Shown here one piece after another: positions 1,458 through 62,693 of a stretch of DNA of 64,000 bases. The stretch is from Candidatus Methanomethylophilaceae archaeon (GTDB taxonomy: Archaea > Thermoplasmatota > Thermoplasmata > Methanomassiliicoccales > Methanomethylophilaceae), in assembly GCA_944320495.1 (NCBI GenBank), contig CALUHR010000013.1, forward strand, positions 384,001 through 448,000, written 5' to 3'. The first letter of the stretch is position 1, and the number at the start of each line of letters is the position of its first letter. The notes below the pieces were generated by a model, which had not been told where the DNA came from, did not search any database, and saw only the letters and a list, made by a program, of their open reading frames with translations. The position numbers and the translations under genes are program-made.

Positions 1458-1673
1458 TCGCTCCTCGTCGTCCTCGACGTACTCCAGGATGTCCCCCGGC
1501 TGGCAGTCGAGGGCCTTGCATATCCCGTTCAGCGTCGAGAATCTTATCGCCGCGATCTTCCCGGTCTTGATGTTGGACAGGTTGACGTTCGATATCCCGA
1601 CCTTCTCGGCCAGCTGGTTGAGCTGGATCTTGCGGTCGGCCATGACCCTGTCCAGGCGGAGTATTATCGTCAT
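1458..1673 (-). CDS. Cro/CI (YozG-like) HTH regulator, 71 aa, ending at CGA
   Basis: LDRVMADRK...IRFSTLNGICKALDCQPGDILEY is the complete small family protein. An in-frame CGA at 1458-1460 abuts the stop of the convergent gene. The standard code would extend it to TAG at 795. Confidence 0.85.
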
Positions 1674-1677
1674 GGGA

Positions 1678-2181
1678 TCACAGCGTGTGGTCCGACTCGT
1701 CCTGGAGGACGGCCCCGTAGCGGAAGACGATCGACAGGCAGTACATCACGACGCATACGAGCAGCGTTCCGAGGAAGATGAACAGCGCCTCGGTCACGGT
1801 GCTCCCTGCCCCGATCTCCAGTGACAGCAGCACGAACGATGACACCAGGTAGACGATTGAGACGGCCTTCATCGAGGATGCGATGCCCTCGGTGAAGGGG
1901 GTGTGCGAATCACGGAGGGCGATCATCATCCTGCGGATGGAGTCCACCGTGACGGAGCCCAGCAGGAGTATGAAGACGGTCTCGGCGAAGCGGAATCCCT
2001 CCAGGTCGCCGAACACGGCGTAGAACGGCTCCAGGGCCTCATGGAAGCTGTCCGAGGCCATCGACGCGATGCCGAGTATAACTGTGATCGCGATGCATGC
2101 CGCGAGGACGATCTCCCCGGCCGCCATCACGGTGGCGGCGTAGCGGCATATCTTCCTCAGGGTCCCGAGGTCACCCTTCAT
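1678..2181 (-). CDS. DUF2975-family membrane protein
   Basis: Four hydrophobic helices, C-terminal FRYGAVLQDESDHTL, and the typical position directly upstream of a YozG-like HTH gene. Confidence 0.8.
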   Translation of the reverse strand: MKGDLGTLRKICRYAATVMAAGEIVLAACIAITVILGIASMASDSFHEALEPFYAVFGDLEGFRFAETVFILLLGSVTVDSIRRMMIALRDSHTPFTEGIASSMKAVSIVYLVSSFVLLSLEIGAGSTVTEALFIFLGTLLVCVVMYCLSIVFRYGAVLQDESDHTL

Positions 2182-2257
2182 GGGCGGTACGAATGATGGT
2201 GAGGATTAATGATTATCGATAAGGATCGCGGCCGGGGAGGTCCCCGGCGCAGAGGTT

Positions 2258-2476
2258 TCAGTCCCTGCCGTTGATCTCGTCGGCGACCTTCTCCAGGTCC
2301 TCGGGGATGATCGGCTTGCCGGCTGCCTTCCTGGCCATGTGGCCTCCGGGTCCGCCGCGAGCGACGCGGGCCTTCTCGAGGCATTCTGGGCTGTCGCAGA
2401 CGAACGACGCATAGGCGATGTTCTTGCAGGGTCCCCCGCAGAACTCGCACTTGTAGTCTTCGAGATTCAATGCCAT
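2258..2476 (-). CDS. Small putative Zn-binding protein (72 aa)
   Basis: CEFCGGPC...VCDSPEC, host-like codon usage, followed by a hairpin. Confidence 0.7.
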   Translation of the reverse strand: MALNLEDYKCEFCGGPCKNIAYASFVCDSPECLEKARVARGGPGGHMARKAAGKPIIPEDLEKVADEINGRD

Positions 2477-2518
2477 TGTCCCACCGGATGCTTTCGTAGG
2501 ATATACGGGTCACCCGCA

Positions 2519-3319
2519 TCGGTTTAGGTCCATGCCGAACACGACGGACGGTGCCGCGTATGTGATCGATCCCAGGGAGACGATGTCCGCCCTGCCGATG
2601 TACGCCGGGATGTCGTCCGGGGAGATCCCTCCGGAAGCTTCGACGAGGATGCGGTCGCTGACCGCCTTGACGGCGTCGCGGATCTGTCCGGTCAGCTCGG
2701 GACCGCAGTTGTCGGCCATGACGATGTCCGCTCCCATCTGGGCGGCGGTGACGGCGTCGTCGACGTTCTCCACCTCGACCTCCACCTTCACGGCGAAGGA
2801 CCTCTTGGAGAGTCTCTCCATGCAGGCGCGGACGCCCCCGCACGCCTTGATGTGGTTGTCCTTGACCATGATCATGGAGTCGAGGCCCATCCTATGGGGG
2901 TCGCCACCAGCGATCCTCACTGCCTCCTTCTCGAAGTCGCCGAACCCGGGGGTGGTCTTCCTGGTGGCCGCGACGACGATTCTCCCGTCGGCCTTCGCGA
3001 CGGCCGCGGAGGTCGCGGTGGCGACCCCCGACATCCTCATCAGGATGTTCAGGGCCGTGCGCTCGATGGTTATCATGGACCTCATGGGTCCGGAGAGGGA
3101 GAGGACCCTCGTGCCGGCCGCGACCCTGTCCCCGTCCCTCACGAGGGGCGTCACGGACACCCCGGCGGACTCGAACAGGTCCTCCACGATCGAGATCCCG
3201 GCGACGGTGCAATCGCCCTCGCAGACGATGCGGGCGGTGCCGTCCGTGTCCGGGACCGTCAGCTCGGTGGTGATGTCGCCGCGGCCCACATCGGCCCTGA
3301 GGAACCTCTCCGCGTCCAT
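2519..3319 (-). CDS. nadC: Nicotinate-nucleotide diphosphorylase (carboxylating), QPRTase
   Basis: ATRKTTPG, HRMGLDSMIMVKDNH, EVEVEN, EASGGI motifs. CGA at 2519-2521; standard-code TGA at 2510. Confidence 0.95.
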
Positions 3320-3321
3320 GG

Positions 3322-4557
3322 TCACACGTCCAGCTCGAACTCCTCGCCAGTCTTCGGCAGGAGCACGTTGTAGTCGGTGAGGTCGGGAAGGAACTTCTCG
3401 CGCGCTTCGGAGTGCATGAAGATGACGTTGTCCGGGTCGCAGGCCTTGATGAACTCGATGATCTGGTCGTGGTCCGCGTGGGCCGAGAAGTCGTACTTCT
3501 GCAGCTCACACTCGACCTTGCAGATCTCGCCGTCGATGTTGACGCAGCGCTGCTCCATGAGCATCCTTCCGTTGGTGTCCTCGGCCTGGTATCCGACGAG
3601 GAGGATGGCGCTCTTCGGGTCGTTCTTGATCTTGTTGAGGTAGCGGATGACGGGGCCCCCGTCCAGCATGCCGCCGGTGGTGACGATGATCTGGCCCTTC
3701 ATGGCGATGTCCCTGCTGCCGGGCCTTCTGACCTCGTTGAACCTCTTCTTGGCCTGCTTGAGCTGCCTCTCGTCCCTGAGGTACTCGGGGTAGTCGAGGA
3801 ACAGGCGGGTGACGGAGCGTCCCATGCCGTCTACCCACATCTCGTAGTCCAGGTCCTTCAGGAGCATCATGATCTCCTGGGTCCTGCCCACGGCGAAGCA
3901 GGGGATGAGGACGGTTCCGCCGCGGTCGATGACCTCCTCCACCTTGGCGAGGAACTCCCTCTCCGTCTGCTTCCTCGGAGGGTGGTTGCGGTCCGCGTAG
4001 GTCCCCTCGATGAACAGGTTGTGGCAGTCCTTCGGCTTGGCGCCCTTGACCAGCCTCTGGGCCTCGGTGTGGATGTCGCCCGAGTAGATCGTGGTGGTGT
4101 CGCGGGCGAACTCGAACATGGCCGCCCCGGGGACGTGTCCCGCATCGAGCATCGCCACGTCGACGTGGCCGACGGTGATCTCGTCGCCGTAGGTCATGGG
4201 CACGACGCACTGCATGGTCCTCTCGATGTCGTCGGCGGTGTAGGGCTGGACGTAGTTCTCCGCCTTGGCGATCTTGAGGGTGTCCTTCATCATCAGCTCC
4301 GCGACCTCGGCGGTCAGGGGGGTGGTGAAAACCTCGCACCTGTCCCTTCCGACGACCTGGGGGACCATCCCGCAGTGGTCCAGGTGGCAGTGGGTGAGGA
4401 ACATGTGGTCGATCTTTGGCGCCTCCAGAGGGAACTCCGGGGGCTTGGTGGGGCTGAGGCCGTACTCCACGAGGAGCCTCATCCCGTCCCCTTCCATCGT
4501 CATTCCCATGCGGCCGACCATGTCAGCGCCGCCCAGAAACTTGAATTTCATTTTCAT
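3322..4557 (-). CDS. Beta-CASP metallo-beta-lactamase ribonuclease (aCPSF2-like)
   Basis: THCHLDH, AGHVPG, YSGD, EGTY, FAVGRTQE and FSAHAD motifs. Start taken as MKMKF. Confidence 0.92.
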   Translation of the reverse strand: MKMKFKFLGGADMVGRMGMTMEGDGMRLLVEYGLSPTKPPEFPLEAPKIDHMFLTHCHLDHCGMVPQVVGRDRCEVFTTPLTAEVAELMMKDTLKIAKAENYVQPYTADDIERTMQCVVPMTYGDEITVGHVDVAMLDAGHVPGAAMFEFARDTTTIYSGDIHTEAQRLVKGAKPKDCHNLFIEGTYADRNHPPRKQTEREFLAKVEEVIDRGGTVLIPCFAVGRTQEIMMLLKDLDYEMWVDGMGRSVTRLFLDYPEYLRDERQLKQAKKRFNEVRRPGSRDIAMKGQIIVTTGGMLDGGPVIRYLNKIKNDPKSAILLVGYQAEDTNGRMLMEQRCVNIDGEICKVECELQKYDFSAHADHDQIIEFIKACDPDNVIFMHSEAREKFLPDLTDYNVLLPKTGEEFELDV

Positions 4558-4839
4558 TGTCCGAACTCCTTTTCGTATTCCGGTCCGGGGGACCGTATGT
4601 GAAAGGGGGCGTACCCCCCATCGACTGTGATGTGACACAGGGCTGTGAACCCCGTATTATAAGGATAGAGGGACCCTATTCTGCGCTATTATTTTAATCT
4701 AAGTAAGAGAGGGAAGGTCGGCACCGAAGCGTTTCAGACAATCGAATGTCTGAAACGCATCAGAACAACAGGATGTGCTGGCTCTTTTCGGCGGGACAAT
4801 GTGCCAACACTCTTAAATCAGTCATTCCTATTCCGCGGC

Positions 4840-6708
4840 ATGGGAGCGCTCGACAAGAGAATATTCAGCGGAGTCGCGTTCGTCGCGGCTCTGTTGGCCA
4901 TCGTGTCAGCCGCCTTGCTCTACTCGAGCGGGGCGGAGCCCTCGGCAGATGGCAACTCCACCGCATTGTACATACTGCTGGTCGCAGGAATACTCGCGAT
5001 CGTATACTCCATCTCCATGTTCCTCGACGGATCCAGTTTCGTCAGGAAGGTCTCAGGCATCCTCGTCCTGGTGTCTGGCATAATGTTCATCGCCACCCCC
5101 GTCGCCGGCGAGAGCGCCGCGACCGTTCTCGCCGCCGCGGGCCTCGTCGCAGGTCTCGCGATGGTCGCGGACATGCTCGCCCTGTGGGTCTCCCGCATCT
5201 ACGGCGCGATGTACGTCTCGGCGGTCCTCGCCGCGATTGGCATCGTCACCGGGGCGATGTGCCTCATCAACGGATACAGCGACATCTACGCTCTCATCAT
5301 GCTCCTGGCGTTCGCCGTCTGGCTCGTCATCGGTGCATGGGTGTACGGATTCGTTCGCGAGGAGACCGTCACCAAGACCCGTGAGGTTGTCGAGGACACC
5401 GTCGCTCAGAGGAAGGAGAAGCCCCAGGCCAAGAACAAGAAGGCCACCCCCAAGGCGAAGAAGGCCGAGCCGACGAAGCCCGCCGAGGAACCGAAGGCCG
5501 AGGAACCGAAGGCCGAGGAGCCCAAGAAGGTCAGGACCGTCGAGCTCCCGAAGACCGCCGCCGCGCAGGCAGCCATCCACAAGAGCCAGGATTCCGCGAA
5601 GACCGAGGCCCCCAAGGAGGAGCCCAAGCAGGAGCAGAAGCCTCCCGCGAAGGCCATGGGCGACTTCATGCAGAAGCTCATGAGTTCCGAGGCCGCCAGC
5701 AAGGCGGTCAGGAAAGAGGTCCGCGAGGAGAAGCCCGCGGTGCAGCCCGAGGCCCCCAAGGAGGAGCCCAAGCAGGAGGCCGCCTCGGAGATCCCCGAGG
5801 CGCCCGTCGAGGAGCCCAAGGCCGAGGAGGCCCCCGCAGAGGAGGTCACCGAGGAGAAGCCCGTCGTGGACGTCGCTCCCGAGATGCCCGAGGAGTCCGT
5901 GATCGAGACCCCCGTCGAACCCGTCGAGAAGAACGACCTCTTCAAGACCGAGGAGCCCAACTGGGGAGTCGTCGCCAGGGATTCCGTCACCGAGGAGCCC
6001 GTCATGCGCCTCAAGTCCTCCCAGGAGAGCGAGTCCGCTCCCGAGACGCCCGTCGAGCAGCCTGTGACCGAGGAGCCCAAGGCCGAGGAGGCCCCCGCAC
6101 CCGAGAACGTTCCCGAAACCGGAGAGGCACCTGTGGAGGAGGCGCCCGTCGAGGAACCCGTCGAGGAACCTGCAGGGGAGCCCGTTCCCGAGGTCCCGTC
6201 CGAGCCCGTCCCGTCCGAGGACACCCCCGCCGTGGACGTTGCCCCCGAGGTCACCGAGTCCGTGATCTCCGCACCCGTCGAGACTCCCGCGGAACCCGCA
6301 GAGGAGCCTACCGCCGAGCCCAACTGGGACGTCGTCGCCCGCGACACGTCCGAGCCCGAGCCCGCTCCCGAGGCGCCCGCCGCAGAGGAGCCCGTGGAGG
6401 ACATCTACACCGACAACTCCCCCGAGGCGCTCGTCAGGAGGGCCGCCTGGAACAAGGGCCTGAGGTGCAGGCGCGGATACGGTGAGAGGAACATCCCCGT
6501 CGCCTTCGTCAAGGGCAAGGTCGCCGTCTACGTCGATGACGGAGAGCCCGACACCTCCGGCGACGACGAGCTCCGCGCCGAGGGATGGACCGTCCTCAGG
6601 TACAGGGCGGAGGACATCACCGACGGCAAGGCGCAGGGTGACGAGATCGCCGCCGCCGTGCGTGAGAACACCAAGTCCACGGCCAAGAAGAAGAAGGCCA
6701 AGAAGTGA
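4840..6708 (+). CDS. Membrane protein with long Glu/Pro/Ala-rich linker and C-terminal Vsr/DUF559-like domain
   Basis: About 5 N-terminal TM helices, about 400 aa of acidic repeats, then RRAAWNKGLRCRR...VAVYVD...LRAEGWTVLRY. Confidence 0.75.
   Translation: MGALDKRIFSGVAFVAALLAIVSAALLYSSGAEPSADGNSTALYILLVAGILAIVYSISMFLDGSSFVRKVSGILVLVSGIMFIATPVAGESAATVLAAAGLVAGLAMVADMLALWVSRIYGAMYVSAVLAAIGIVTGAMCLINGYSDIYALIMLLAFAVWLVIGAWVYGFVREETVTKTREVVEDTVAQRKEKPQAKNKKATPKAKKAEPTKPAEEPKAEEPKAEEPKKVRTVELPKTAAAQAAIHKSQDSAKTEAPKEEPKQEQKPPAKAMGDFMQKLMSSEAASKAVRKEVREEKPAVQPEAPKEEPKQEAASEIPEAPVEEPKAEEAPAEEVTEEKPVVDVAPEMPEESVIETPVEPVEKNDLFKTEEPNWGVVARDSVTEEPVMRLKSSQESESAPETPVEQPVTEEPKAEEAPAPENVPETGEAPVEEAPVEEPVEEPAGEPVPEVPSEPVPSEDTPAVDVAPEVTESVISAPVETPAEPAEEPTAEPNWDVVARDTSEPEPAPEAPAAEEPVEDIYTDNSPEALVRRAAWNKGLRCRRGYGERNIPVAFVKGKVAVYVDDGEPDTSGDDELRAEGWTVLRYRAEDITDGKAQGDEIAAAVRENTKSTAKKKKAKK
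5482..5526 (+). repeat. 15-bp tandem repeat x3 (AEEPK)
   Basis: gccgaggaaccgaag twice, then gccgaggagcccaag. The same CDS has longer internal duplications (EAPKEEPKQE x2, EPNWxVVARD x2, VDVAPE x2). Confidence 0.85.
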
Positions 6709-6824
6709 GAGGGCGGACCCCCTCCAAACCCCTTACTCAAACCCCTTCCTTTCTATCGCGCGCCTGCGGACGGGAGCCATAATATATCGCGACTGACTGC
6801 CCCATCCAACCAGAGGCTGAAAGA

Positions 6825-7124
6825 ATGTTTTGCCCATCATGCGGTTCGATGATGTTCCCCCGCGAGGGGAGATACGTCTGCAGCAAGTGCGGTGCCGAGA
6901 AGGATCTGGGCTCCAAGCCGGAGATCATCGTCACCGATTCCAAGAACAGGATGACCACGGTCATCGAGAGCGACACGGCCACCCTCCCGAAGACCCGCAT
7001 CGCCTGTCCCGAGTGCGGCCACACCGAGGCCTTCTTCGTGATCAGGCAGACCAGGGCCGCGGATGAGCCTGAGACCAGGATCTACCGCTGCTGCAAGTGC
7101 AACCACACCTGGAGGGAGTACTGA
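6825..7124 (+). CDS. tfs: Transcription factor S (TFS, RpoM family)
   Basis: Two Zn ribbons and the QTRAADEPET acidic hairpin. Confidence 0.95.
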   Translation: MFCPSCGSMMFPREGRYVCSKCGAEKDLGSKPEIIVTDSKNRMTTVIESDTATLPKTRIACPECGHTEAFFVIRQTRAADEPETRIYRCCKCNHTWREY

Positions 7125-7126
7125 GG

Positions 7127-7864
7127 ATGTTCAAGGCCGATCTCAAGTCGGACACCCTGAAAGGGCTCGTCAACATCATCTCCACCCTGATCGATGAGGT
7201 CAAGTTCACCATCGGTCCGGATGGCATGACCCTGAAGGCCGTGGACGCGGCCCACGTCGCCATGATTGAGATGGAGGTCGGCAAGGACGCCTTCGAATCC
7301 TATGAGGCGGACTCCTGCGAGATCGGGCTCGATCTCGACAAGGTGAAGGGGGTCCTGAAGTTGGCCTCGTCCGGCGACATCGTCAGCATGGAGCAGGACG
7401 ACACCCACGGGAGGCTCGTGTTCAAGGTCGGAAACATCACCAGGCGCATGAACCTGGTGGACACCGCCACGATGAACGACCCGAAGGTCCCCCAGCTCTC
7501 GCTCGCCACCAGCATCAGCCTCATGGTGGACGAGCTGCAGAAAGGTATCCGCGCGGCCGACACCATCTCCGACCACATCACCCTCAGGGCGGGGCCGGAC
7601 TTCTTCGAGCTGTCCTGCGAGGGCGACACCGACTCCGTGAGCCTCAGGCTCGAGGGCAGCTCCCTCCTGGGCATCGAGGCCGCCGAGGAGGTCAGGAGCA
7701 TGTTCCCCCTGGACTACTTCCAGAACATCACCAAGGCCATACCGGCGGGGACCGCGGTCACCGTCGAGCTGGACAGCGACTACCCCGTCAAGCTCGTGTT
7801 CGCGCTCGCCGACGGGGCGGCGAAGGTGAGGTACCTCCTCGCGCCTAGGATCGAGAGCGATTGA
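7127..7864 (+). CDS. pcn: DNA polymerase sliding clamp PCNA
   Basis: LKAVDAAHVAMI, EIGLDL, DYPVKL and YLLAPRIE motifs. Confidence 0.97.
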   Translation: MFKADLKSDTLKGLVNIISTLIDEVKFTIGPDGMTLKAVDAAHVAMIEMEVGKDAFESYEADSCEIGLDLDKVKGVLKLASSGDIVSMEQDDTHGRLVFKVGNITRRMNLVDTATMNDPKVPQLSLATSISLMVDELQKGIRAADTISDHITLRAGPDFFELSCEGDTDSVSLRLEGSSLLGIEAAEEVRSMFPLDYFQNITKAIPAGTAVTVELDSDYPVKLVFALADGAAKVRYLLAPRIESD

Positions 7865-7866
7865 AT

Positions 7867-8697
7867 ATGTCAGCAGACGTCGAGCATCTGAAGAAGATCG
7901 CGGACAGGCTCAGGGTGGACGTCATCGAGATGACGTCCGAGGCCGGATCCGGCCACCCCGGAGGGTCCCTGTCGTCGGCGGACCTCATGGCCGTCCTCTA
8001 CTTCGGGGGATGCATGAGGCACGACCCGGAGAACCCCCAGTGGGAGGACAGGGACCGCTTCGTCCTGTCCAAGGGCCACGTCGCCCCCGTCCTCTACGCC
8101 GCCCTCGCCGAGTCCGGATACTTCCCCACCGAGGAGCTGCTCACGCTCCGCAAGCTGGGCTCCAGGCTGCAGGGCCACCCGGTCCGCGGCAAGGTGCCCG
8201 GCGTCGAGATGTCCACCGGATCGCTGGGGCAGGGCCTCAGCATGGCCTGCGGCATCGCTCTGGCCGGGAAGATGGACGGGAAGGACTACAGGACCTTCTG
8301 CCTCCTCGGGGACGGGGAGCTTCAGGAGGGCCAGAACTGGGAGGCGGCGATGTTCGCCCGCCAGTACGGGCTGTCCAGGCTCATCGCCATCGTCGACCGC
8401 AACCACCTCCAGATCACCGGGGACACCGAGGAGGCCGTCGGCCTCAACCCGCTGCCCGAGAAGTGGAAGGCGTTCGGATGGAACGTCATCGTCATCGACG
8501 GCCACGACATCCAGATGATCATCGATGCGATCGAGAGGGCGTCCGAACCCTCCGACAGGCCCACTGCCATCATAATGGAGACCGTCAAGGGAAAGGGGGT
8601 GTCCTTCATGGAGAACAACGTCGCGTTCCACGGCAAGGCCGCCAATGAGGAGGAGCGCGAGATTGCAATCATGGAGCTCACGGGGGGATCCGAATGA
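7867..8697 (+). CDS. tktA: Transketolase, N-terminal subunit
   Basis: [25 protein letters not shown], and the GDGELQEG ThDP motif. Confidence 0.96.
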
Positions 8698-9623
8698 AGA
8701 TCGCACAGCGCAACTACTACGGCAAGGCCCTCGCGGCCCTCGCCGCCGACCCCAGGGTCGTCGTCATGGACGCAGACCTGGCCGGATCCACCAAGACCTC
8801 CGAGTTCCAGAAGGTCTGCCCCGAGAGGTTCGTCGAGGTGGGCATCGCCGAGCAGAACATGATCGGCATCGCCTCCGGGCTCGCCGCCTCGGGCAAGGTG
8901 GTCTACGCCTCCACCTTCGGGATATTCGCCACGGGCAGGTGCTGGGAGCAGATCAGGCTCGCCGTCGCCTATCCCAGGCTGAATGTCAGGATCTGCGCCA
9001 CCCACTGCGGTATCACCGTGGGCGAGGACGGCGCGTCCCACCAGGCGCTGGAGGACATGGCGATAATGCGCACCCTCCCCAACATGACCGTCATCTGCCC
9101 CGCGGATGCATACGAGGCGTACGCGGCCACCATCGCCCTCGCGGACTTCGAGGGCCCCGCATACATGCGCATGGGCCGCGCCGACTTCCCGGTCGTGACA
9201 TCCGAGGACGACGTCTTCGAGGTAGGCAAGGCCAGGGTCATGCGCGAGGGCTCCGATGTGACGCTGTTCGGATGCGGCCAGATGACTGCGATGTGCCTGG
9301 AGGCCGCCGAGACGCTGGCATCCGAGGGCATCTCCGCGGAGGTCGTCAACGTATCCACGATCAAACCCATCGACGCCGAGGCCATCGTCGCATCGGTGTC
9401 CAAGACCGGATGCTGCGTCACCGCCGAGGAGCACAGCATCATAGGCGGACTGGGCTCCGCCGTCGCCGAGGTCCTGGCGGACTCCCGCCCCGCCCCACTG
9501 GAGAGGGTCGGAACCAGGGACACCTTCGGCGAGTCCGGGAAGCCGGACGAACTCATGATCAAATACGGGCTCACCGCCGGCGCCATCGCAGACGCGGCCC
9601 GCAAAGTCATCTCAAGGAAGTGA
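8694..9623 (+). CDS. tktB: Transketolase, C-terminal subunit
   Basis: [26 protein letters not shown] motifs. Confidence 0.95.
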
Positions 9624-9628
9624 ATCCG

Positions 9629-10276
9629 ATGAAGATTTTCATAGACACCGCCAACCTGGACATGATCAGGGAGATCAACAGCTGGGGGATCCTCGACGGG
9701 GTCACCACCAACCCCAGCCTCATCGCCAAGGAGGGCGTGGACGTCCGCACCAGGGTCAGGGAGATCGCCGAGATCGTCGACGGCCCCATCTCCGCCGAGG
9801 CCATGTCCACCACCGCCGAGGAGATGGTGAAGGAGGGGAGGGAGCTCGCCGCCATCCACCCCAACATCAACGTCAAGCTGCCCATGTGCGTCGAGACCCT
9901 CAAGGCCACCAAGATCCTCGCCTCCGAGGGCATCAGGGTCAACGTCACCCTGATCTTCTCCCCGCTGCAGGCCCTCCTGGCCGCCAAGGCCGGAGCAGCC
10001 TTCGTCTCCCCGTTCATCGGACGCCTGGACGACATCGGCCAGTACGGATCCGACCTCGTCGAGCAGATCATGGCGATCTTCAACAACTACGGCATCGGGA
10101 CCGAGGTCATCGCGGCCTCCATCCGCGGACCCAACCACGTCCTCGACGCTGCGCTGTGCGGATGCGACATCGCGACCATCCCCTACGACACGCTGAAGAA
10201 GATGATCTCGCACCCCAAGACGGACGAGGGCATCGCCAAGTTCGTCGCGGACTACGAGAAGTCCAAGAAGGCATGA
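9629..10276 (+). CDS. fsa: Transaldolase / fructose-6-phosphate aldolase family
   Basis: [37 protein letters not shown]. Confidence 0.95.
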
Positions 10277-13914: not shown

Positions 13915-14007
13915 GCGGACGGGGATATCTTAGCCATAGATAAGGTTCGGCTCGGGATGTTCGCGCGATGTGTTTATCGCTCCGATCGCGTTCGTACGGG
14001 CGATACC

Positions 14008-14490: not shown

Positions 14491-14553
14491 AGGTTGTGAA
14501 TCAACTATCGTTGCGTTATTCTATTAAACGCTGAAACGATACACGTTGCCACC

Positions 14554-15999
14554 ATGTCCGACCTCCTCTCTTAGGTGAAAGGTGGGGAATCCACCATTCT
14601 CGAATTCAAGGAGTCTCTGCAAGAGGACAGCATCGGCTGGTTGAAGACGGTCGTGGCGTTTGCCAATGGCAGGGGCGGAAGGCTCGTCGTGGGCGTAGAT
14701 GACAGGGGTGAGGTGTTCGGAGTCACCAAGGAGGAGCTGGAACAACTCTGTCAGAGTATCGACGATTCCATATCGGATTCCATAGTCCCGCAGATATCGA
14801 GAGATGTCTATGTCCAATCTCTTGAGGGCGAGTCGGTGGTGGTCGTAGAGGTATATCCAGGGCCTGGCAGGCCATATTACATCAAGAGGCTCGGTGTGAA
14901 GGAAGGGACTTTCGTTCGCAGGGGAGCATCCACTCGCCTGGTGGACGATGCCACCTTGGATGAGCTCAGGCTTCAGGGGAAGCGCTCGACATTCGATTCT
15001 CTAGAGAATCTCGATATTGCTGTTACCAGAGAGAGGACAGATTGTATAATCAGAAAGGTTGGGGAGTTATACGGTGCCGAGATCGATGAGACCGATCTCC
15101 GCAACTGCGGTATCATCAGGGTGAAAGATGGCCAGGATATTCCAACCAATGCATATGCCCTTCTTTGTAGCGACTCTCCGTTCCTTTTCACAGAAGTCAG
15201 GTGTGCTCTCTTCAAGGGTCGTAACGGGACCGAATTTCTAGATCAGGCGGATTTCTCATGTCCTATATTCGAACAGATTGAGAATGCCTATCGTTTTGTT
15301 CTCCGCAATATCAGGAAGAGCGGACGTGTAAGTGGTCTTGTTCGCGAGGACAGATACGAGATACCGCCCGATGCGATTCGCGAGGTAATCGTGAACGCCG
15401 TTCAGCACAGAAGCTACATCAATAGCAATCGTCCGATACATCTGGCCATATTCGACGACAGATTGGAGATAACGTCCCCCGGAATCCTTCTGATAAGTCG
15501 TGATGAGATGAAGCAAGGTCGCACGGAGCATCGCAACCCCGTGATATCCAAATTCTTCAGACTCGTCGGCATTTGCGAAGGTTGGGGGAATGGGATGTCA
15601 ACGATCATCCACAACTGCGTGGAATATGGGCTGCCGGAACCATCCATAGAGGAAGGGCCCGCGGATGTCATAGTCACAATCTGGCGTCCTGTGGATTATG
15701 ATCAGTCTCATGACACTGATGATGACACTGATGACACTGATAATCAGTCTCATGACACTGATGACACTGATAATCAGTCTCATGACACTGATCAGATAAG
15801 AACTGTCCCCAGAAATCGCAGAGAACAGATAATCCAGATGATGGAATCGGATCCATCCATCTCAATAGAGGGCCTGTCCAAGAAGTTGGGTATGTCCAGA
15901 AGCACGATCAACCGTGATATACAGAGGCTCAAGGCAGAAGGTGTTCTCTCGAGGGATGGAAGCAGCAAGAAGGGCCTTTGGACGATTCACCGGAATCGA
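14554..15999 (+). CDS. AlbA_2/Schlafen-domain protein with RecG-C-like ATP-binding domain and C-terminal HTH
   Basis: ESTILEFK, VVAFANGRGG, IREVIVNAVQHRSY, RNPVIS, C-terminal HTH. Lower GC than the flanks. Probable ATG at 14554 with an in-frame TAG at 14572 (alternative GTG start 14575). CGA at 15997; standard-code TGA at 16234-16236. Confidence 0.88.
15700..15795 (+). repeat. 30-bp tandem repeat built from 9-bp gacactgat units (SHDTDDTDNQ)
   Basis: aatcagtctcatgacactgatgacactgat appears twice with flanking partial copies, in frame, just before the HTH. Confidence 0.9.
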
Positions 16000-16009
16000 G
16001 GTCTGATGC

Positions 16010-17518: not shown

Positions 17519-17551
17519 TGAGATCGACCCCTTCGGAGGGGCATAGAACTC

Positions 17552-17559
17552 TTTAAATA
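17552..17559 (+). promoter_or_regulatory. TATA box of rps17e
   Basis: TTTAAATA about 40 nt upstream of the ATG, in otherwise GC-rich DNA. Confidence 0.55.
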
Positions 17560-17600
17560 CAGCATCCACTTAGCGCGGTTCATTCAACTCGGTGAATGAT

Positions 17601-17792
17601 ATGGGAAGAATAAGACCCACCTACATCAAGAGAGTCTCCATCGAACTCATCAACAAGTATCCTCAGGCGTTCAGCAAGGACTTCGACGCCAACAAGGAGA
17701 TGGTCAGCACCCTGACCGATGTCACCTCCGTCAAGATGAGGAACAGGATCGCCGGATACATCACCCGCTACCTGTCCCACCCTGAGGCGTGA
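17601..17792 (+). CDS. rps17e: 30S ribosomal protein S17e
   Basis: MGRIRPTYIKR...RNRIAGYITR. Confidence 0.97.
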   Translation: MGRIRPTYIKRVSIELINKYPQAFSKDFDANKEMVSTLTDVTSVKMRNRIAGYITRYLSHPEA

Positions 17793-26674: not shown

Positions 26675-28144
26675 TCGCTCGGCGGAACCGAACAGATCCA
26701 TGACCCTCTTGGTATCCGGGGAAACATCGGAATGGAATCTGAATCCGTTGCTCACGATGGTCACATATCTCGAGGCCAGCGAGAACGCGTCATCAACTGT
26801 GAGTCTGGAGTCGCCGTCTTCGAGAATCTGGGCTATGGCGGTGCGTATGCCTGTTGACAGGAACATCAGGAACCTTTCCCATCCATGACTTCCTGATGAA
26901 TCGGCCGAGAAGATGCTGTCGATGAGTGCATGGGATTGCTTCAGAGTCATGCTCCTCAGATTAATGAGATCCATGGCATACTCCCATTGCTCTTCCGTGG
27001 TCAGTATCACCGATGATCCGATGCATCCGTCAATCTCTGATATCAGATGCGATGTCGCGGAGTCATTGTGCGGCAGATTGTTGTACCTCAGCATCCTAGA
27101 TACGCTGGATTCCGTGTATCCGATGCTCTTTGTCATGTTCCTGATGTGGCGGACCGGTTTTGTCAGGAACACATTAAAGGTGAACATGCAATCATCATTT
27201 CCTCTGCCACGGTCGACATATGTCCAAGCTCCGTTGTTCAGTCTTATCCCGAGACATCCTTGGTACACATCATGCTCTATTCCATGATGCTCAGCTTTGT
27301 GATATTCTGTGGCCATCATGCCCAGGGCTGAGCGCAGAGTGTCAGAGCATGTCCCGATTCTCATAGTCATCCTGTCTCCGTCCATGAGCATCCTGGCGAT
27401 CTCCGGGGGATTGTCCGAAATCTCGTCCAGGACCCTGACGAGTCTGACGTTCGTACCTGTCGCGATGGCCATGCGTCTCCACGCACCCGCGTTCATGCTC
27501 CTGCCGATGGTAGCGCCTGCGGCTATGGGGCGGCCCATGTCATCGGAGCAGAAAATCAGCGACACGTCGTCCGCATCGTGGTCCATCGGGCTCTTCATGG
27601 ATGCGTGTCTGAGTCCCCCGTTCCTGCCCGAGAGTCCGAAGACGATGACAGGGCCGTCGGATCCCTCGCGGATCGTCCATGCATACCTCTTGATCGATTC
27701 GTAGTCTATCTTCGATATTGCCCTTCTGATCAATCCAGCGGTGGATGCTGCATCGCCGAGGACCGGTTCGAGGTCCAAACCTCTGAGGAGACGGATACGG
27801 TCGGCACTAGGCAGGGGATTGATCGCATAGCAGATAGCCAATGCGAGCATCATGTCTCCGTCATCGCCGAAGACGCATCTGAGTGCATCCCTCATCCCGC
27901 ATCTCTCTGCTGCGTTGGAGGCAATCAGCACGCTTCCGCGATCGAGGGTGGAGAACCTTCCATCGGACAGCATGGAGCATGCCGCATCGATCGGCAGCGG
28001 TTTCACATCGACCATCCCGGTCTTCGGATCGAGGATGCCGATGTACTCCTTCATGCTCACAGGGTTCTTCCTACCAGGGACGCGTCTCGACTCCGTCCGG
28101 TAGACGTACGTCCTGCCGTTCCTTTCCACGTACACTATGGGCAT
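26675..28144 (-). mobile_element. IS1634-like transposase-derived ORF (degenerate)
   Basis: The N-terminus RNGRTYVYRTESRRVPGRKNPVSMKEYIGILDPKTG matches the IS1634 pattern. Lower GC, no clear DDE motifs, no terminal repeats seen. CGA at 26675; standard-code TGA at 26642. Confidence 0.65.
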
Positions 28145-32879: not shown

Positions 32880-34427
32880 TCGCAGTTTGAGCAGTTTATC
32901 CGGGTTCGCGGCCCGGAGTATGAGGGGTTCCAGCCCTCCGAATGCGTCCGGGAGTGCGAAGCTCCCTCCGGCGGTGTCGCACGGCACGTACACCAGCCCC
33001 TTGACGCTGGGCTTGCTCAGCTTCAGCTTGGAGTGCGTCTGCGAGCACTGGGTCAGGTACATCTCCACCAGCCTGGACGCCTCGGTCCTGGTGCAGAGCG
33101 GGATGAACACGGTGCGGGATCCAGGGGACCCCTCGGATGCGGAGTCGGCGAGGCGGCCGATCCCCGCGCTCCCGCTGATGCTGTGCTCCTCGCCTTTGAG
33201 GCGGTTCAATATGGAGCTTTCGGGAGCCGCTGCGAAGATGTCGGTCAATCCCGAGCGGGGGTCGGACAGCGCCCTCTCGAACACCGTGAACACGGCGGGG
33301 ACCATCAGGTCCTCCTTCACGACCACGGACTTCTTGGAGAGGAACGAGCCGGTGGTGAAGCTGTACTGCAGGTCCACGTCCCAGAAGGGCATCAGCGAGT
33401 CGCCTCCGCCCTGGCATATCGGTATCGTGCCGCCGTTCTTGGCCGCCACGACGTCGTTGACGTAGCCGTAGAGCTCGAAGTCGCGGGCCTCCGACGTCAG
33501 CAGCCTGTTCCATTGCGGGTTGTCCGGGTATTCCGCGGAGGCGACCCCGTTGATCAGCGTGAGCGTCTTGAGCGGGTCCTTGGACGTGCCGTTGTTGACC
33601 ATGTCGACCACGTTCTTCAGCGTCCTGGTCTGGGAGATCTCCATGTCCACAGCCCTGAGGGTCACGGCGAGCCTGGGGTTGGAGAGCAGCTCCCTCTTCG
33701 CCGCCTCCAGCTCGGAGAGCCCCTCCTCCGCCTTGGCGGAGCATCCGAGGGCGTCCCCGTTGAGCACCATGTCGGATGCAGCGCAGACGTCGGACAGCGC
33801 CCTGAGCCTGGATGCGAGCGGCTCGTACCCTTCGCACTTCGCCATTGCGTCCGCCGATTCGAGGAAGTTCTTCGACATGATGGCGAAGCGCCCGGGGGAC
33901 CCGGTCTCGGTCAGCAGCTTGGAGTTGTTCAGTATCATCGCATAGGCGTTGGCGATGCCCTCGCCGGTGACGATGGATTTCCTGCTCTCGTCGTCCACGG
34001 CCATGGGCTCGACGCTCTTCAGCCTGGCCTGGAACTCGAAGGCCTGCGTGGAGGTGTGGTCGGACCTGACCGGCTCCCCCTTGCTGAACGGGAGCACGAT
34101 GAGCGGCGAGGCGATCACGGAGTTCAGCGCGAAGCGGTACTCGTTGATCTCCACGTCCACCCTGGGCTTGACGCTGTTGACGTATATGCTGTGCCTGGCG
34201 ACGGGGTCCACGTTGTCGACCGACCCCATGGCGAAGCCGCCGGGGATGGTCTTGGCGATCCAGCTCTGGATCTGCCCCATCATCTGCTCCATGTACTTCC
34301 TGGCGTCCAGCCTCTGCTGGGTGGTGCCGCAGCTGGGGCAGGTTATGTAGGGGGAGTCGGACTCTATGTCCTTCCTGTCGAGGGGCGCGCCGCAGTACTT
34401 GCAGCGCAGCTCAACCATGTCGTCCAT
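32880..34427 (-). CDS. N-terminal zinc-ribbon protein (YdjG-like)
   Basis: CKYCG...CPSCG, helical middle, PFW and YVP motifs in the C-terminal part. CGA at 32880; standard-code TAG at 32832. Confidence 0.75.
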
Positions 34428-52800: not shown

Positions 52801-53913
52801 TTGGAGTCCAGGAAGGACCTGCTCGGCGAGGTCGGCCGCGTGGTCATCAAGATAGGGTCCTCGTCGATCATGAGGAACCAGACTTCCATCTCGAGGGACT
52901 TCATGGACTCCGTGGCGGAGCAGGTCGCCCGTCTCAGGGAGATGGGCATGGAGGTGCTCATCGTCTCGTCCGGTGCGATAGCGATCGGCCTCAAGGCGAT
53001 GAAGGTCAAGCCCAAGCCCAACGAGATACCCATAAGGCAGGCCGCATCGGCGGTCGGCCAGAGCATCCTGATGAAGGAGTGGGGCGAGTGCTTCCAGCGC
53101 CACGGGATGCTCGTCGGCCAGGTCCTCATGACCCTGGACAACTACTCCGACCGCACCGAGGCGGTCAACATGAACAACACCATCGAGTCGCTCCTGAAGA
53201 ACGGCGTGGTGCCGATCTTCAACGAGAACGACGCGGTGTGCATCAGCGAGATCAAATTCGGGGACAACGACACCCTCTCCGCGATAGTTGCGAGCAGGAC
53301 CGACGCGGACCTGCTGGTGATCCTATCGGATGTCGCGGGCCTCTACACCGGCGATCCCACATCCGACCCTTACGCCAGGCTGGTGCCGGTGGTCTGGAAC
53401 ATCGAGGACGTCCGTCATATGGCCGGGGACTCCGTCTCCGGCGTGGGCACCGGCGGCATGAAGACCAAGCTCAGCGCCGCCCAGGTCTGTCACGATGCGG
53501 AGTGCGGGATGATCATCGCCCTCAGCAGGGAGGACCAGGTCATCTACAGGGCATGCACCGGCGAGGACATCGGCACGATCTTCGTGGCCGACAAGGGCAT
53601 CTCGAAGAAGCGCCGCTGGATAAAGTCCGCCCACCCGTCCGGTCGCATAATCATCGACGAGGGGGCCGGGAGGGCCGTGGCCGCCCACAAGTCGCTGCTC
53701 CCTGTGGGCATCCGCGATGTGGAGGGCCGTTTCAACAAGGGCGACGTCGTGGACATCGTCTGCAACGGTGTCGTCGTCGCCAAGGGCATCATCGGATACG
53801 ATTCGACGGACCTGAAGATGATCAAGGGCAAGCACAGCGACGAGATCGAGTTCATCCTCGGCTACAAGGCCCACGACGATGCCGTGATCTCGGAGAACAT
53901 CGCGCTGATATGA
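52801..53913 (+). CDS. proB: Glutamate 5-kinase with PUA domain
   Basis: VIKIGSS, NENDAV, GDNDTLSA, GTGGMKTKL, C-terminal PUA domain. TTG start. Confidence 0.96.
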   Translation: MESRKDLLGEVGRVVIKIGSSSIMRNQTSISRDFMDSVAEQVARLREMGMEVLIVSSGAIAIGLKAMKVKPKPNEIPIRQAASAVGQSILMKEWGECFQRHGMLVGQVLMTLDNYSDRTEAVNMNNTIESLLKNGVVPIFNENDAVCISEIKFGDNDTLSAIVASRTDADLLVILSDVAGLYTGDPTSDPYARLVPVVWNIEDVRHMAGDSVSGVGTGGMKTKLSAAQVCHDAECGMIIALSREDQVIYRACTGEDIGTIFVADKGISKKRRWIKSAHPSGRIIIDEGAGRAVAAHKSLLPVGIRDVEGRFNKGDVVDIVCNGVVVAKGIIGYDSTDLKMIKGKHSDEIEFILGYKAHDDAVISENIALI

Positions 53914-53964: not shown

Positions 53965-54291
53965 TCGCTCGGGAAGGCGCTCGATCCTGAAGATGACGGG
54001 TCTCGTCCCGTCGTTGCAGCAGGCGATCATGACGCCGTCGTCCCTGTTCCACCCGTCCATGATGGCTCCGCCGTTCATGGCGGCGTAGACGTACCTGCTG
54101 ATGCAGCTCCATGCCTCCGAGCAGAACCTCCCGTGCATCAGATGACGCCATTCGTCGGGGGTGACGATGAACTCGTCGCCCGGGTGGAATAGCGAGCACG
54201 GCCCCGTCTCGGGGTTCGACAGATACTCCTTCTGGAGGTCATCGTAGCATCTGCATTCGAGGACGGTGATCCTCACGTTGTGCATCGTCAT
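53965..54291 (-). CDS. TIGR04076-family protein, copy 2 (ends at CGA)
   Basis: AWSCISRYVY...IACCNDGTRPVIFRIER. ATGA overlap with copy 1. CGA at 53965; the standard code would extend it to TAG at 53323. Confidence 0.88.
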
Positions 54292-59627: not shown

Positions 59628-60005
59628 TCGAAGGGCCGATGGGGGAACCCGAGGGATGACGCGGTCCACCTCGTTCTTCGCCCATGGCACGGTGTCCAGA
59701 TACTCATCGCGGTCGAAGGACAGCTCGTCCGGCAGCTCCGAGAACAGGCGGGACTCCATCTCGCAGTCCTCCCTGACCTTCCTACCGAGGATCGCCGCGC
59801 ACACGTCGCAGTACCCGATGTCGCGGGTGGCCACAATCTCGATCTCGTACCCCGCCTCCTCCAGGAACTCCCTCGCGGCGGCCTGGGCGGAGGTCTCTCC
59901 CTCCTCGACGTGTCCGCCGGGCATCTCCCAGCCCTTCCTGCGCCTGTGCCAGACCATCAGGAACCTGTCGCCGTCGAAGGCCACGGCGTAGGCGGTCCTG
60001 CCCAT
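59628..60005 (-). CDS. NUDIX hydrolase
   Basis: Nudix box GGHVEEGETSAQAAAREFLEEAG. CGA at 59628; standard-code TGA at 59619. Confidence 0.9.
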
Positions 60006-60006
60006 G

Positions 60007-60660
60007 TCACGCCCTCCTGGCGACGATCATCCTGTGGTCCTTCTCGTAGGGTTCCAGGGACCTGGAGTCGACGATGCGGTAGCCCCTCTCGCGTATGCGG
60101 GCCTCCGCCTGCTCGAAGATCCTCTCGGGCGGGGCCGTCACGTCCTCGGACCTGGCCTTCACGGCGACCATCCCCCACTGCGCGTTGAACGCGTCCATGT
60201 TGTCGCAAAGGATGTCAGCCTGGTGCTTCTGGGCCACGTCCTGGTACACCGCGTCCACCCTCTCGGCGAACATGGCGTACTCCTCCGGCTTCGTGGCATC
60301 CCCCAGCACCGGCATCATCATGGGCCTGCCCTCGGAGTTCCGGACCAGCTCCCTGAACATCCTCGGCGCGAACTCCACGCAGACGACCCTCCCGTCGCGG
60401 ACGATGTCGGCCACGTGCGACGGCGTCGTTCCGCTGGACGCTCCGAGGTAGAGCACGGTGGACCCCCTGCCGAACGGGACGTCCCTCCCGCCCGCGGTCA
60501 GGTACGCGGACAGCTTGCTCCTGCGCGGGTCCCACTCGCGGTATTCCCTGCCGCCGGAGGAGACCAGCCTCTCGCCGTATACCCTGAATCCGGGCCGTGC
60601 CGATTCGGTGTACAGCCTGCCGCGGTCCTCGAAGACGCCATCCGGTCCCAAAGGTTGCAT
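60007..60660 (-). CDS. flpA: Fibrillarin-like rRNA/tRNA 2'-O-methyltransferase
   Basis: VYGE, WDPRRSKL, VLYLGASSGTT, VEFAPR, YQDVAQ. Confidence 0.95.
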   Translation of the reverse strand: MQPLGPDGVFEDRGRLYTESARPGFRVYGERLVSSGGREYREWDPRRSKLSAYLTAGGRDVPFGRGSTVLYLGASSGTTPSHVADIVRDGRVVCVEFAPRMFRELVRNSEGRPMMMPVLGDATKPEEYAMFAERVDAVYQDVAQKHQADILCDNMDAFNAQWGMVAVKARSEDVTAPPERIFEQAEARIRERGYRIVDSRSLEPYEKDHRMIVARRA

Positions 60661-60711
60661 GCCGCTTTCCAGGGCAACCACCTATTAAGGGATGGTGCCT
60701 ACGGCCCCCTC

Positions 60712-62322
60712 ATGATAACGATGCGGGACCTCGTGGCCATCGCCGACGCGGTCCAGGAGGCTGTCGACAGCATACCCAGTTCGGAGGAGCGGGGCAAGAA
60801 GGTGTGCATGGGCGCGGACGGGTCGTGCTCGTCCGAGGTGGACAAGGTCGCCGAGAACGCCGCCCTGATGTACATCGAGCGCGAGCATCTGCCGCTGAAC
60901 GTCCTGAGCGAGGAGATCGGCTACGTGGACAACGGCGGCGAGGAGGTCCTGGTCATGGACCCGGTCGACGGGACGTCCAACGCCATAGCCGGGCTGCCGC
61001 TGTACACCGTGTCCCTGGCCGTGGGCGCCTCGTGCCTGTCCGATGTGCGCCTGGCGTACATGAGGAACCTCGCCACCGGCGACGCCATGTGGGCGGAGAG
61101 GGGCAAGGGGGCGTTCAAGAACGGCGAGCCCATCCACGTCAGGCGCGCCGAGCTGGACGACATCTTCCTGATGATCTACGAGGGCAACGGGGCCCACCCG
61201 GATGCATTCTCCGTCGCCAAGGTCGTCCGCTCCTCCAGGTCGCTGGGCTGCACCTCCCTCGAGATGGGCATCGTCGCCGAGGGCCAGGCGGACGGCTACT
61301 TCATGAAGGCCGAGAAGTACACCCGCTCGGTCCGCGTGGTGGACATCGCCGCCAGCTCCCTCATCCTGAGGGAGGCGGGAGGGGAGGTCTACGACCTTGA
61401 CAACAACGTCCTCGACATGCCCTTCGACCTCGAGCACCGCTCCAACTTCCTCGCCGTGGGCGACCGGAGGATCTACGACATCATCGTCAGGCACAGGGTC
61501 AGCCACGTCCACAGGTACGGGGTGTACGCGAACGCGCATATAGGCAACATCCTGGACCCCGCCCGCAGGGTCATCGACGTGCTCAGGGAGGAGGGCGCCG
61601 ACTTCTGCGTAGACACCGAGATCGCCGATGCGCTGGGAGTCCCGGGCATACCCCTGTCCAGGATGGGCGCTGACATCGTGATCGTCGTCGGAGGGGACGG
61701 CACCATCCTCCGCGCGCTCCAGGCCACCGACGCCATAATCGTCGGCGTCAACGGCGGCAGCGTGGGGTTCCTCGCGGAGATCGAGACCGACGGCATCGAG
61801 GAGGGCATCAGGAGGCTACTGGCCGAGGACTACATCGTGGAGTCCAGGTTCAAGATCGCCACCTTCTACAACGGCGAGTACCTGAAGGACTCGGTGAACG
61901 AGGCCGTGGTGCACACCGACACGATCGCCAAGATCCGCCACTTCAGGGTGTACGTCGACGACGTGCTCGCCTCGGAGCTCAGATCCGACGGCGTCATAGT
62001 CTCCACCCCGACCGGGTCCACCTGCTACGCGATGTCCCTCGGTGCCCCGTACATGGATCCGAAGGTCGAGGCGATGATGGTGGTCCCGATGGCCGCCTAC
62101 AGGTTCAACTCCCGCCCGTTCGTGGTCCCCGCCACATCCAAGGTCACCGTAGAGAACGTCCTGGACAAGGGATGCATCATCGTGCTGGACGGACAGGAGG
62201 AGATCTACATGGAGGGAGGGTCCAAGGTCGAGTTCATGATGTCCGAGAGGAGGGCGAGGTTCGTCCGCTTCGACACCGACTTCTACTCCAGGGTCAAGGA
62301 CAAGCTGGTGAACTCCCTATGA
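60712..62322 (+). CDS. ppnK: Bifunctional inositol-monophosphatase-like NADP phosphatase / NAD kinase
   Basis: SEE and DPVDGT in the IMPase domain, then GGDGT, NE and STPTGSTCYAMS in the NAD kinase domain. Confidence 0.92.
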   Translation: MITMRDLVAIADAVQEAVDSIPSSEERGKKVCMGADGSCSSEVDKVAENAALMYIEREHLPLNVLSEEIGYVDNGGEEVLVMDPVDGTSNAIAGLPLYTVSLAVGASCLSDVRLAYMRNLATGDAMWAERGKGAFKNGEPIHVRRAELDDIFLMIYEGNGAHPDAFSVAKVVRSSRSLGCTSLEMGIVAEGQADGYFMKAEKYTRSVRVVDIAASSLILREAGGEVYDLDNNVLDMPFDLEHRSNFLAVGDRRIYDIIVRHRVSHVHRYGVYANAHIGNILDPARRVIDVLREEGADFCVDTEIADALGVPGIPLSRMGADIVIVVGGDGTILRALQATDAIIVGVNGGSVGFLAEIETDGIEEGIRRLLAEDYIVESRFKIATFYNGEYLKDSVNEAVVHTDTIAKIRHFRVYVDDVLASELRSDGVIVSTPTGSTCYAMSLGAPYMDPKVEAMMVVPMAAYRFNSRPFVVPATSKVTVENVLDKGCIIVLDGQEEIYMEGGSKVEFMMSERRARFVRFDTDFYSRVKDKLVNSL

Positions 62323-62693
62323 CGAGGATACGCGGGGTGGACGTGGACTTCATAGACGCCTTCAACGAGGCGGCCCGTTCCACCTACCCCGACGAGTTCC
62401 TCTGCATGCACCGCGAGATCGACGGCATCATCAGCGAGATGGTCATGCTGCCAGGGACGGTGTACGGGGACTCGCACAGCTTCCTGAACCAGTGGATGGC
62501 CCCGATAGACTACAGTCTGGCGGGCTCCGCCCACTCGCACCCGGGGTACTCGAACGAGCCCTCTGATGCCGACAAGGACTTCTTCAGGAACACAGGGGGC
62601 ATCCACTTCATAACGTGTCAGCCATACGACAGGACCAGCTGGCGCGCCTATGACTCCTACGGGGAGCCGGTAGACATCGAGGTCATCTACCGA
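62319..62693 (+). CDS. JAB/MPN (Mov34) metalloprotease, 124 aa, ending at CGA
   Basis: E...HSHP...PSDAD JAMM motif. ATGA overlap with ppnK. CGA at 62691 abuts the stop of the convergent gene. The standard code would extend it to TAG at 63842. Confidence 0.88.

Follow-up and report, generated by a model that had tools for sequence, protein, structure and literature searches.

The codon CGA very probably serves as a fourth termination codon, ending roughly 20-25% of genes, in a chicken-gut methanogen of the Methanoprimaticola type (family Methanomethylophilaceae). The evidence comes from a 64-kb stretch of its DNA (G000:C13:384001-448000, hereafter the window) and from the genome that carries it, G000, which has 1.77 Mb in 14 contigs and a guanine-plus-cytosine (GC) content of 62%. 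Public sequencing runs carrying the window sequence are mostly chicken-gut metagenomes from several studies. An earlier sequence-only reading of the window had listed ten genes with a CGA at or near the natural C-terminus and had proposed that translation ends there. In the explanation that we favour, this stop would be leaky and read by the release factor aRF1, in competition with a weakened arginine (Arg) transfer RNA (tRNA) of anticodon UCG, tRNA-Arg(UCG), and the supply of aRF1 would be set by a feedback resembling that of bacterial RF2.

As a trinucleotide CGA is abundant in G000, with 97,784 occurrences on both strands, so its absence from genes is specific to the reading frame. Among 1530 open reading frames (ORFs) called with the standard code, 481 in-frame CGA were counted, 340 of them in the last tenth of the ORF and another 76 in the ninth tenth. 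The positions of CGG, CGT and AGA were flat along the same ORFs. The clustering of in-frame CGA at the ends is far beyond chance, and it extends to the whole genome what had been read by eye in the window.

The coding signal was lost at the same point. GC content at codon positions 1, 2 and 3 changed from 0.59, 0.44 and 0.88 before the first CGA to 0.59, 0.67 and 0.57 after it, which matched the sequence downstream of TGA stops (0.57, 0.67 and 0.57), and there was no change of composition past the first CGG, CGT, AGA or CTA. The tails past CGA contained further CGA at 17.5 per 1000 codons. A CGA preceded by 40 strongly coding codons was found 249 times; another stop followed within 40 codons in 143 of these cases, and just 2 of the other 106 stayed coding. 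The corresponding counts were 22 of 278 (TGA) and 213 of 355 (CGG).

When CGA was treated as a stop, gene calling returned 1660 genes with a coverage of 85.2%, compared with 1530 genes and 82.1% under the standard code. In these four-stop calls, TGA ended 1183 genes (about 71%), CGA 405 (24%), TAA 53 (about 3%), and TAG 19. The terminator overlapped the start of the next gene as CGATG at 46 CGA terminators, and as ATGA at 239 TGA terminators. At uncoupled terminators the +4 base was U in 47% of cases after CGA and in 28% after TGA, and A in 9 and 24%, respectively. The earlier statement that the flanking bases share no motif holds except for this weak +4 U. An in-frame back-up stop stood at the next codon in 6.4% of cases after CGA compared with 2.6%, and its median distance was 31 compared with 40 codons. 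A larger enrichment obtained on the standard-code calls was set aside, since those calls lacked the genes with long tails and so gave a biased figure; the four-stop recount reduced it to about 1.5-2.5 fold. This enrichment hints at leakiness of CGA.

In the window, genes were called with a codon-usage gene caller trained on G000. The calls comprised 54 genes and 18,479 codons, with in-frame CGA only six times, always within 16 codons of a standard stop, and with CGG 24 times, dispersed along the genes. Four more CGA-ended genes had been dropped by the caller, as their tails of 78-382 codons overlap other genes. All ten CGA sites were confirmed by script in their frames (Table 1), and the manual observations that window genes lack internal CGA and use CGG internally about two dozen times held up in the count (21-24 CGG). 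If CGA were read as Arg, the four overlapping tails would measure 220 (site 1458), 78 (15997), 213 (53965), and 382 codons (62691). The first of them runs across the convergent gene 891-1457, the third runs antisense through gene 52801-53913, and the last is antisense to gene 62694-64040. The 78-codon tail holds 10 more CGA, and the coding score turns negative past the CGA both in this gene and in gene 53965..54291, whose tail is likewise rich in further CGA. Where Pfam finds families, the domains stop just before the CGA, as had been supposed for the natural C-termini. In the long ORF of the Prok-JAB gene, for example, the domain extends to residue 159 and the CGA is codon 173, 14 codons after the domain. 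Of the family labels assigned earlier, HTH, nadC, and JAB were recovered by Pfam (as HTH_26, QRPTase_C, and Prok-JAB), and transposase and TIGR04076 were without Pfam confirmation. The gene labelled AlbA is the low-GC gene that ends at 15997-15999.

Orthologs were then used to see where the proteins end. The nadC gene ends ..DLN-CGA in G000, G018, and G009. Among 12 congeners, its 3' end reads ..N-TGA in the same column in nine, and TGA or TAA stands one codon earlier in three. A broader comparison drew on eight other genomes, each sampled over 20-80 kb. CGA-ended G000 genes were compared with orthologs 43 times, and in 39 of these comparisons TGA (27), TAA (3), or CGA (9) lay within a few codons of the aligned end; in the control set of TGA-ended G000 genes 289 of 290 had a matching aligned stop. 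Because the ortholog stops align there, the proteins really end at CGA, and the alignment columns carry TGA or TAA in the way that the sequence-only reading had anticipated. Its central proposal, that translation ends at CGA, is thus one on which the positional count, the loss of coding signal, and the ortholog stops agree.

The presence of CGA at conserved internal Arg columns had been named beforehand as evidence against a stop meaning. Gene bodies turned out to be purged of CGA, with two conserved internal sites left, the codon for Arg78 of aRF1 and the junction of gmhA and gmhB. The only other exceptions were two sites found in G000 alone, G000:C8:55685 (+) and G000:C5:178733 (+). One is in a flavodoxin-like gene (GKTI-CGA-PFCTNEGSG), for which the two closest orthologs have AGG, and the other lies ahead of predicted membrane helices, at a position that is Ser, Phe, or Ala in homologues. 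Recent nonsense mutation or tolerated leakiness could account for these two. Three further candidates for internal CGA were followed by noncoding sequence and were rejected as ordinary terminators. The CGA of an ankyrin gene (C8) was rejected likewise, since the coding sequence beyond it belongs to the next gene, which is in the same frame and has its ATG four codons later.

The aRF1 gene was located by a scan for coding that continues past CGA. G000 has one such gene, with CGA at codon 78 and a continuous frame across it, and a search of G000 for a paralogue found no second release factor. Codon 78 aligns with the conserved Arg81 of human eRF1 (..QQRLKLY..). Exactly one CGA, at this column, was present in aRF1 of 22 of 23 congeners and of all 36 species representatives whose aRF1 is at least 82% identical. 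The context NCT-CGA-CTN is invariant despite a GC content at third codon positions (GC3) of 0.88, and other Arg columns of the gene vary among AGG, CGC, and AGA. In outgroup families, 2-4 CGA are scattered over the aRF1 gene. In nearly all aRF1 genes of the family, one or a few of the Arg codons in the N-domain are CGA, drawn from a small set of positions (11, 25, 27, 50, 78, 99, and 123), even in genomes in which CGA is otherwise almost unused. The closest public relatives of this aRF1 belong to metagenome-assembled genomes of Methanomassiliicoccales and Methanomethylophilaceae, among them 'Candidatus Methanoprimaticola sp. MG2' with 91% identity.

The second conserved site lies outside the window, where CGA joins gmhA and gmhB in frame. 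In 30 congeners the junction codon was CGA in 23, TAG in 3, AGA in 2, and AAG in 1, and in 1 a CGA stood one codon earlier. No ATG, GTG, or TTG was found between the junction CGA and the catalytic DRDD motif of gmhB. On this sequence pattern, the simplest reading is a programmed read-through that would give both GmhA and a GmhA-GmhB fusion, with Arg inserted at the CGA. In G011 and G020, an additional CGA encodes the Arg of the DRDD motif. The equation of CGA with stop consequently stands at gene ends and needs qualification at aRF1 and gmhA-gmhB, where CGA would be read through, presumably as Arg.

The sequence-only reading, which had listed a stall on a poorly decoded codon among its mechanisms, needs a further correction: the cognate tRNA has not been lost and is present in the window in an altered form (Table 1). 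In 11 aligned tRNA-Arg(UCG) of the genus, positions 31 and 39 were unpaired in every one (A.A, C.A, or U.C), and all other helix pairs were kept, six of them with compensatory changes. Across 18 genomes of the genus, the 31-39 mismatch was found in 16, and G008 and G015 have C33 in place of the near-universal U33, with 31-39 intact. By comparison, U33 and an intact 31-39 pair are present in all 30 tRNA-Arg(UCG) from 11 further genera of the family; these genes were missed by a BLAST-type DNA search and were found by a covariance model. We infer that the altered anticodon arm weakens the decoding of CGA by tRNA-Arg(UCG). The gene itself ends ..GCC followed by T (29388-29392), and the terminal A of CCA is not encoded, a feature that varies among members of the genus. 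The nearby genes of an Arg-GCG tRNA (17823-17899) and a Thr tRNA (24529-24603) encode the full CCA.

Table 1. Genes that end in, decode, or span CGA (positions refer to the window unless stated otherwise).
Feature	Position	Strand	Remarks
HTH_26 (Cro/C1-type) regulator, 71 amino acids	1458..1673	(-)	CGA 1460-1458; HTH_26 spans 6-68 (Pfam)
nadC (quinolinate phosphoribosyltransferase), 268 amino acids	2519..3325	(-)	..GMDLN-CGA 2521-2519; QRPTase_C to residue 266 (Pfam)
TRM5/TYW2-type methyltransferase (taw2-like), 343 amino acids	11409..12440	(+)	CGA 12438-12440; TAG 5 codons on
Low-GC gene, start uncertain, C-terminal HTH-like end	14575..15999	(+)	..GLWTIHRN-CGA 15997-15999
AMP phosphorylase-type gene, 502 amino acids	16010..17518	(+)	Last codon CGA 17516-17518, then TGA (tandem CGA-TGA)
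489-amino-acid gene, moderately low GC3, no Pfam match	26675..28144	(-)	..LFGSAE-CGA 26677-26675; TGA 10 codons on
tRNA-Arg(UCG), cognate CGA decoder	29317-29390	(+)	A31.A39 mismatch, 4-bp anticodon stem, 9-nt loop
515-amino-acid gene, no Pfam match	32880..34427	(-)	CGA 32882-32880; second CGA and TAG 15 codons on
Cys-rich small protein, 108 amino acids	53965..54291	(-)	..FRIERLPE-CGA 53967-53965
NUDIX hydrolase, 125 amino acids	59628..60005	(-)	CGA 59630-59628; TGA 2 codons on
Prok-JAB domain gene, 124 amino acids	62319..62693	(+)	..DIEVIY-CGA 62691-62693; ATG overlaps TGA of preceding gene
gmhA (SIS isomerase)-gmhB (HAD phosphatase), joined in frame	G000:C13:193672-194700, outside the window	(-)	CGA 194145-194143

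Among the ten CGA-ended genes of the window, gene 26675..28144 is the weakest case. This gene and the low-GC gene 14575-15999 have a GC3 of 0.33-0.7, far under the genome norm of 0.88, and were therefore probably acquired recently; both are still CGA-ended. In an Asp/Thr-rich repeat of the low-GC gene (..DTDDDTDDTDNQSHDT..), a DNA contig from another study skips 72 bases at 15700-15773, which looks like a strain-level difference in repeat length. Two further window ORFs ending in CGA, 3336(+) and 10413(-), were set aside as shadow ORFs, since each overlaps a stronger gene.

CGA-ended genes were also present in samples of separately assembled species, in 9 of 72 genes of G013, 4 of 89 of G004, 6 of 78 of G108, and 3 of 44 of G071. 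The higher-GC members of the genus clearly use CGA as a terminator. In other genera, three end-of-gene CGA each were seen in G097 (g17) and G046 (g15). In G054 (g23) CGA is rare yet used as a sense codon, with 5 in 22,221 codons, and in g12 and g11 it stands at Arg columns as sense. From this graded distribution, the loss of sense CGA seems to be older and wider than its heavy use as a terminator, and the latter appears to track GC content. A separate observation was made in another family of the order. In nadC of G035 (locus L029), CGA occupies the position at which two congeneric genomes have TGA, and a TAG comes four codons after it; as an isolated instance, this may be due to chance.

We propose that these features are connected as follows. 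The single aRF1 would recognise CGA besides UGA, two codons that differ only in the first base, and would compete for it with tRNA-Arg(UCG), which is retained with an anticodon arm altered genus-wide and would be weakened. Because aRF1 would usually win this competition, CGA would be purged from gene bodies, and under GC pressure TGA stops would drift to CGA. The tRNA must win at a few conserved sites, namely Arg78 of aRF1 and the gmhA-gmhB junction. As the synthesis of aRF1 would depend on read-through of its own CGA, the balance between stop and Arg might be held steady by the logic of RF2 autoregulation, and at the gmhA-gmhB junction the same balance would yield a terminated product together with a fused one. 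F56Q-like and R68M-like changes of aRF1 (human numbering) were considered as the sole cause and rejected; genera that read CGA as sense have them too, so they cannot alone explain the switch.

Several points weigh against this explanation. Peptide release at CGA is a deduction from the statistics of the sequence only, and the agency of aRF1, the insertion of Arg at read-through, and the feedback loop are conjectural too. Shadow ORFs may account for some of the 405 genes called with a CGA end. The cognate tRNA-Arg(UCG) persists with its Arg identity features and is structurally maintained, so CGA is not a clean stop. G008 and G015, which are complete genomes of the same genus, have no CGA in 22-24 thousand sampled codons, as sense or as terminator, and have nevertheless kept the CGA of aRF1. 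G097 and G046 have end-of-gene CGA yet canonical tRNA stems, so that a broken 31-39 pair is no strict requirement. In aRF1, whose codon-reading motifs the sequence-only reading had suggested inspecting, the only genus-specific changes were E7, D17, C142, V250, and I270, and none fell in NIKS, YxCxxxF, or GTS. RNA contigs were sparse, and their coverage over five CGA sites was absent or uncertain. Finally, anticodon stems of 4 bp are not rare in bacteria, where they make up 5.6% of tRNAs, and the known stop-reading tRNAs with such stems open at the top of the stem, not at the bottom (PMC13092985). For both reasons, the weakening by the 31-39 mismatch can be no firmer than conjecture.

The strongest competitor is that CGA is unassigned or nearly undecodable, so that ribosomes stall on it and are released by rescue, either of the Pelota/ABCE1 type or through a slow, non-specific action of aRF1. 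We regard this as improbable, though it would account for the damaged anticodon arm of tRNA-Arg(UCG) in the whole genus, for the unchanged codon-reading motifs of aRF1, and for the avoidance of CGA altogether in G008 and G015, as predicted for an unassigned codon. On the other hand, stalling would be costly if a quarter of the genes relied on it, and the CGA terminators have their own +4 preference and a CGATG coupling, like real stops. The sole invariant internal CGA is in aRF1 and not in a rescue factor. Moreover, direct recognition of CGA by a release factor is plausible, since a study in yeast proposes that eRF1/eRF3 misreads CGA as a stop (PMC7379694). Owing to the conserved CGA inside its own gene, recognition by aRF1 is favoured over stall and release.

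Editing of messenger RNA from C to U, which would turn CGA into UGA, had also been offered as a mechanism, and CGA and UGA are indeed one transition apart. Residues from NCG codons that precede an A were 67.5% conserved against orthologs, and those from NCG codons not before A were 65.8% conserved. Because the two groups are equally conserved, a general, frame-independent editing of CGA is excluded by this comparison. With out-of-frame CGA in genes left unedited, editing would need to respect the reading frame at some 400 sites, which have no common motif beyond the weak +4 U, and would have to spare aRF1 and gmhA-gmhB. Contigs of two metatranscriptome runs were compared with positions 1-20000 of the window, which contain five CGA sites. 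No C>T was found at these sites among the RNA-contig differences listed; the contigs did not clearly cover the sites, and site-specific editing keeps a small probability. Taken together, editing is very unlikely.

Least probable of all is an artefact, in which TGA was mis-called as CGA or a rare Arg codon merely happens to fall near C-termini: CGA is indeed an infrequent sense codon in many relatives, such as G054, but DNA contigs of an independent study (X3) match the window letter for letter over sites 1458 and 15997, several species that were assembled independently show this pattern too, and the coding signal is lost past CGA, in CGA-rich tails that run up to 382 codons antisense through other genes. 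Base-calling or assembly error is thus excluded by the agreement of the other study's contigs and by conservation across species, in line with the argument against it made from the window alone.

Termination at CGA by aRF1 also invites a wider proposal, which we put a little below an even chance. The codon would have a dual meaning set by aRF1 against the weakened tRNA, and the CGA of aRF1 would act as a homeostat. This gate may predate the code change and may have been a pre-adaptation for the reassignment, because CGA is found in the N-domain of nearly every aRF1 of the family, even where the codon is otherwise almost unused.

To our knowledge, code changes in free-living cells are either stop-to-sense changes or amino-acid swaps, and sense-to-stop changes have been accepted only in organelles. 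If CGA means stop here, a sense codon would for the first time have turned into a stop in a free-living organism, and no report of a CGA stop in Methanomethylophilaceae or Methanoprimaticola was found in the literature. New beyond the stop meaning itself are the altered tRNA, the conservation of the aRF1 CGA, the internal CGA between gmhA and gmhB, the control for editing, and the grading of CGA use among genomes. One genus, which includes Ca. Methanoprimaticola sp. MG2, offers graded states in which CGA is rare but sense, is unused, or ends 5-25% of genes, and this makes the codon-capture pathway directly testable. In practice, annotation with the standard code would place false C-terminal extensions on about a quarter of the proteins, hide the genes that lie under the tails, and misdirect heterologous expression. 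The retained tRNA and the CGA of aRF1 suggest a new kind of release-factor feedback. If this is true, autoregulation of aRF1 through a weakly recognised sense codon would be a pre-adaptation for the first cellular sense-to-stop reassignment.

The closest model for such a feedback is RF2 (prfB) of bacteria, in which an early in-frame stop is read by RF2 itself and full-length synthesis goes up when the factor is scarce. The aRF1 gene likewise has an early, conserved in-frame codon that would be read by its own product. The two differ in that RF2 synthesis involves a +1 frameshift at UGA, stimulated by a Shine-Dalgarno-like element, whereas the frame of aRF1 is unchanged and CGA would be read through, presumably as Arg by tRNA-Arg(UCG). 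RF2-type regulation of aRF1 is a suggestion drawn from the gene sequence.

Sense codons have become stops in organelles, namely AGA and AGG in vertebrate mitochondria, UCA in Scenedesmus mitochondria, and UUA in thraustochytrid mitochondria (NCBI tables 2, 22, 23). In these codes, as here, the sense codon is missing from gene bodies and is found at gene ends where relatives have standard stops. However, organellar genomes are tiny, with a handful of genes, and the present case concerns a free-living archaeon of the gut, in which some 400 of about 1,650 genes end in CGA. G000 also keeps the cognate tRNA and conserved read-through sites. It is not organellar: this archaeal genome measures 1.77 Mb and encodes a full set of tRNAs together with aRF1 and PylS. 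The organellar cases are discussed in PMC6551751 and PMC12574857.

An archaeal parallel is offered by two hydrothermal-vent assemblies in which CGG encodes Trp; CGA is missing from their recognisable protein domains, and a possible stop meaning was raised (Melnykov, bioRxiv 10.64898/2026.04.02.715157). They belong to another lineage and habitat, their GC content is about 50%, they yielded no tRNA(UCG), their CGG is reassigned, and the preprint did not test the stop meaning. In G000, by contrast, CGG is still used and Arg-like, a tRNA(UCG) gene exists, and orthologs served to check the terminator role.

The altered tRNA can be compared with the Blastocrithidia-like tRNAs with 4-bp stems, in which the change of one anticodon-stem pair likewise accompanies the partition of a stop-like codon between a tRNA and a release factor. 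In those tRNAs the top pair 27-43 is open, the loop has 7 nt, and read-through of UGA is enhanced (PMC13092985). In tRNA-Arg(UCG) of G000 and its congeners, it is the bottom pair 31-39 that is open, or C33 that is present; the tRNA is the cognate one, and its decoding is presumably weaker.

A non-standard code is already described for methanogenic archaea with pyrrolysine, in which every TAG is read as this amino acid; that report does not mention CGA (Kivenson et al., bioRxiv 10.1101/2024.09.30.615893). PylS is present in G000 too (C9:67854-68522 (-), 260.8 bits, above the cut-off), and coding-like sequence follows many TAG. GC3 is 0.78 over the 20 codons downstream of TAG, and another stop within 40 codons follows 22 of 112 TAG that stand after coding sequence. 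TAG thus seems not to be stop-like in G000, and may be read as pyrrolysine. The pyrrolysine code is a stop-to-sense change, the opposite in kind to the one proposed here for CGA.

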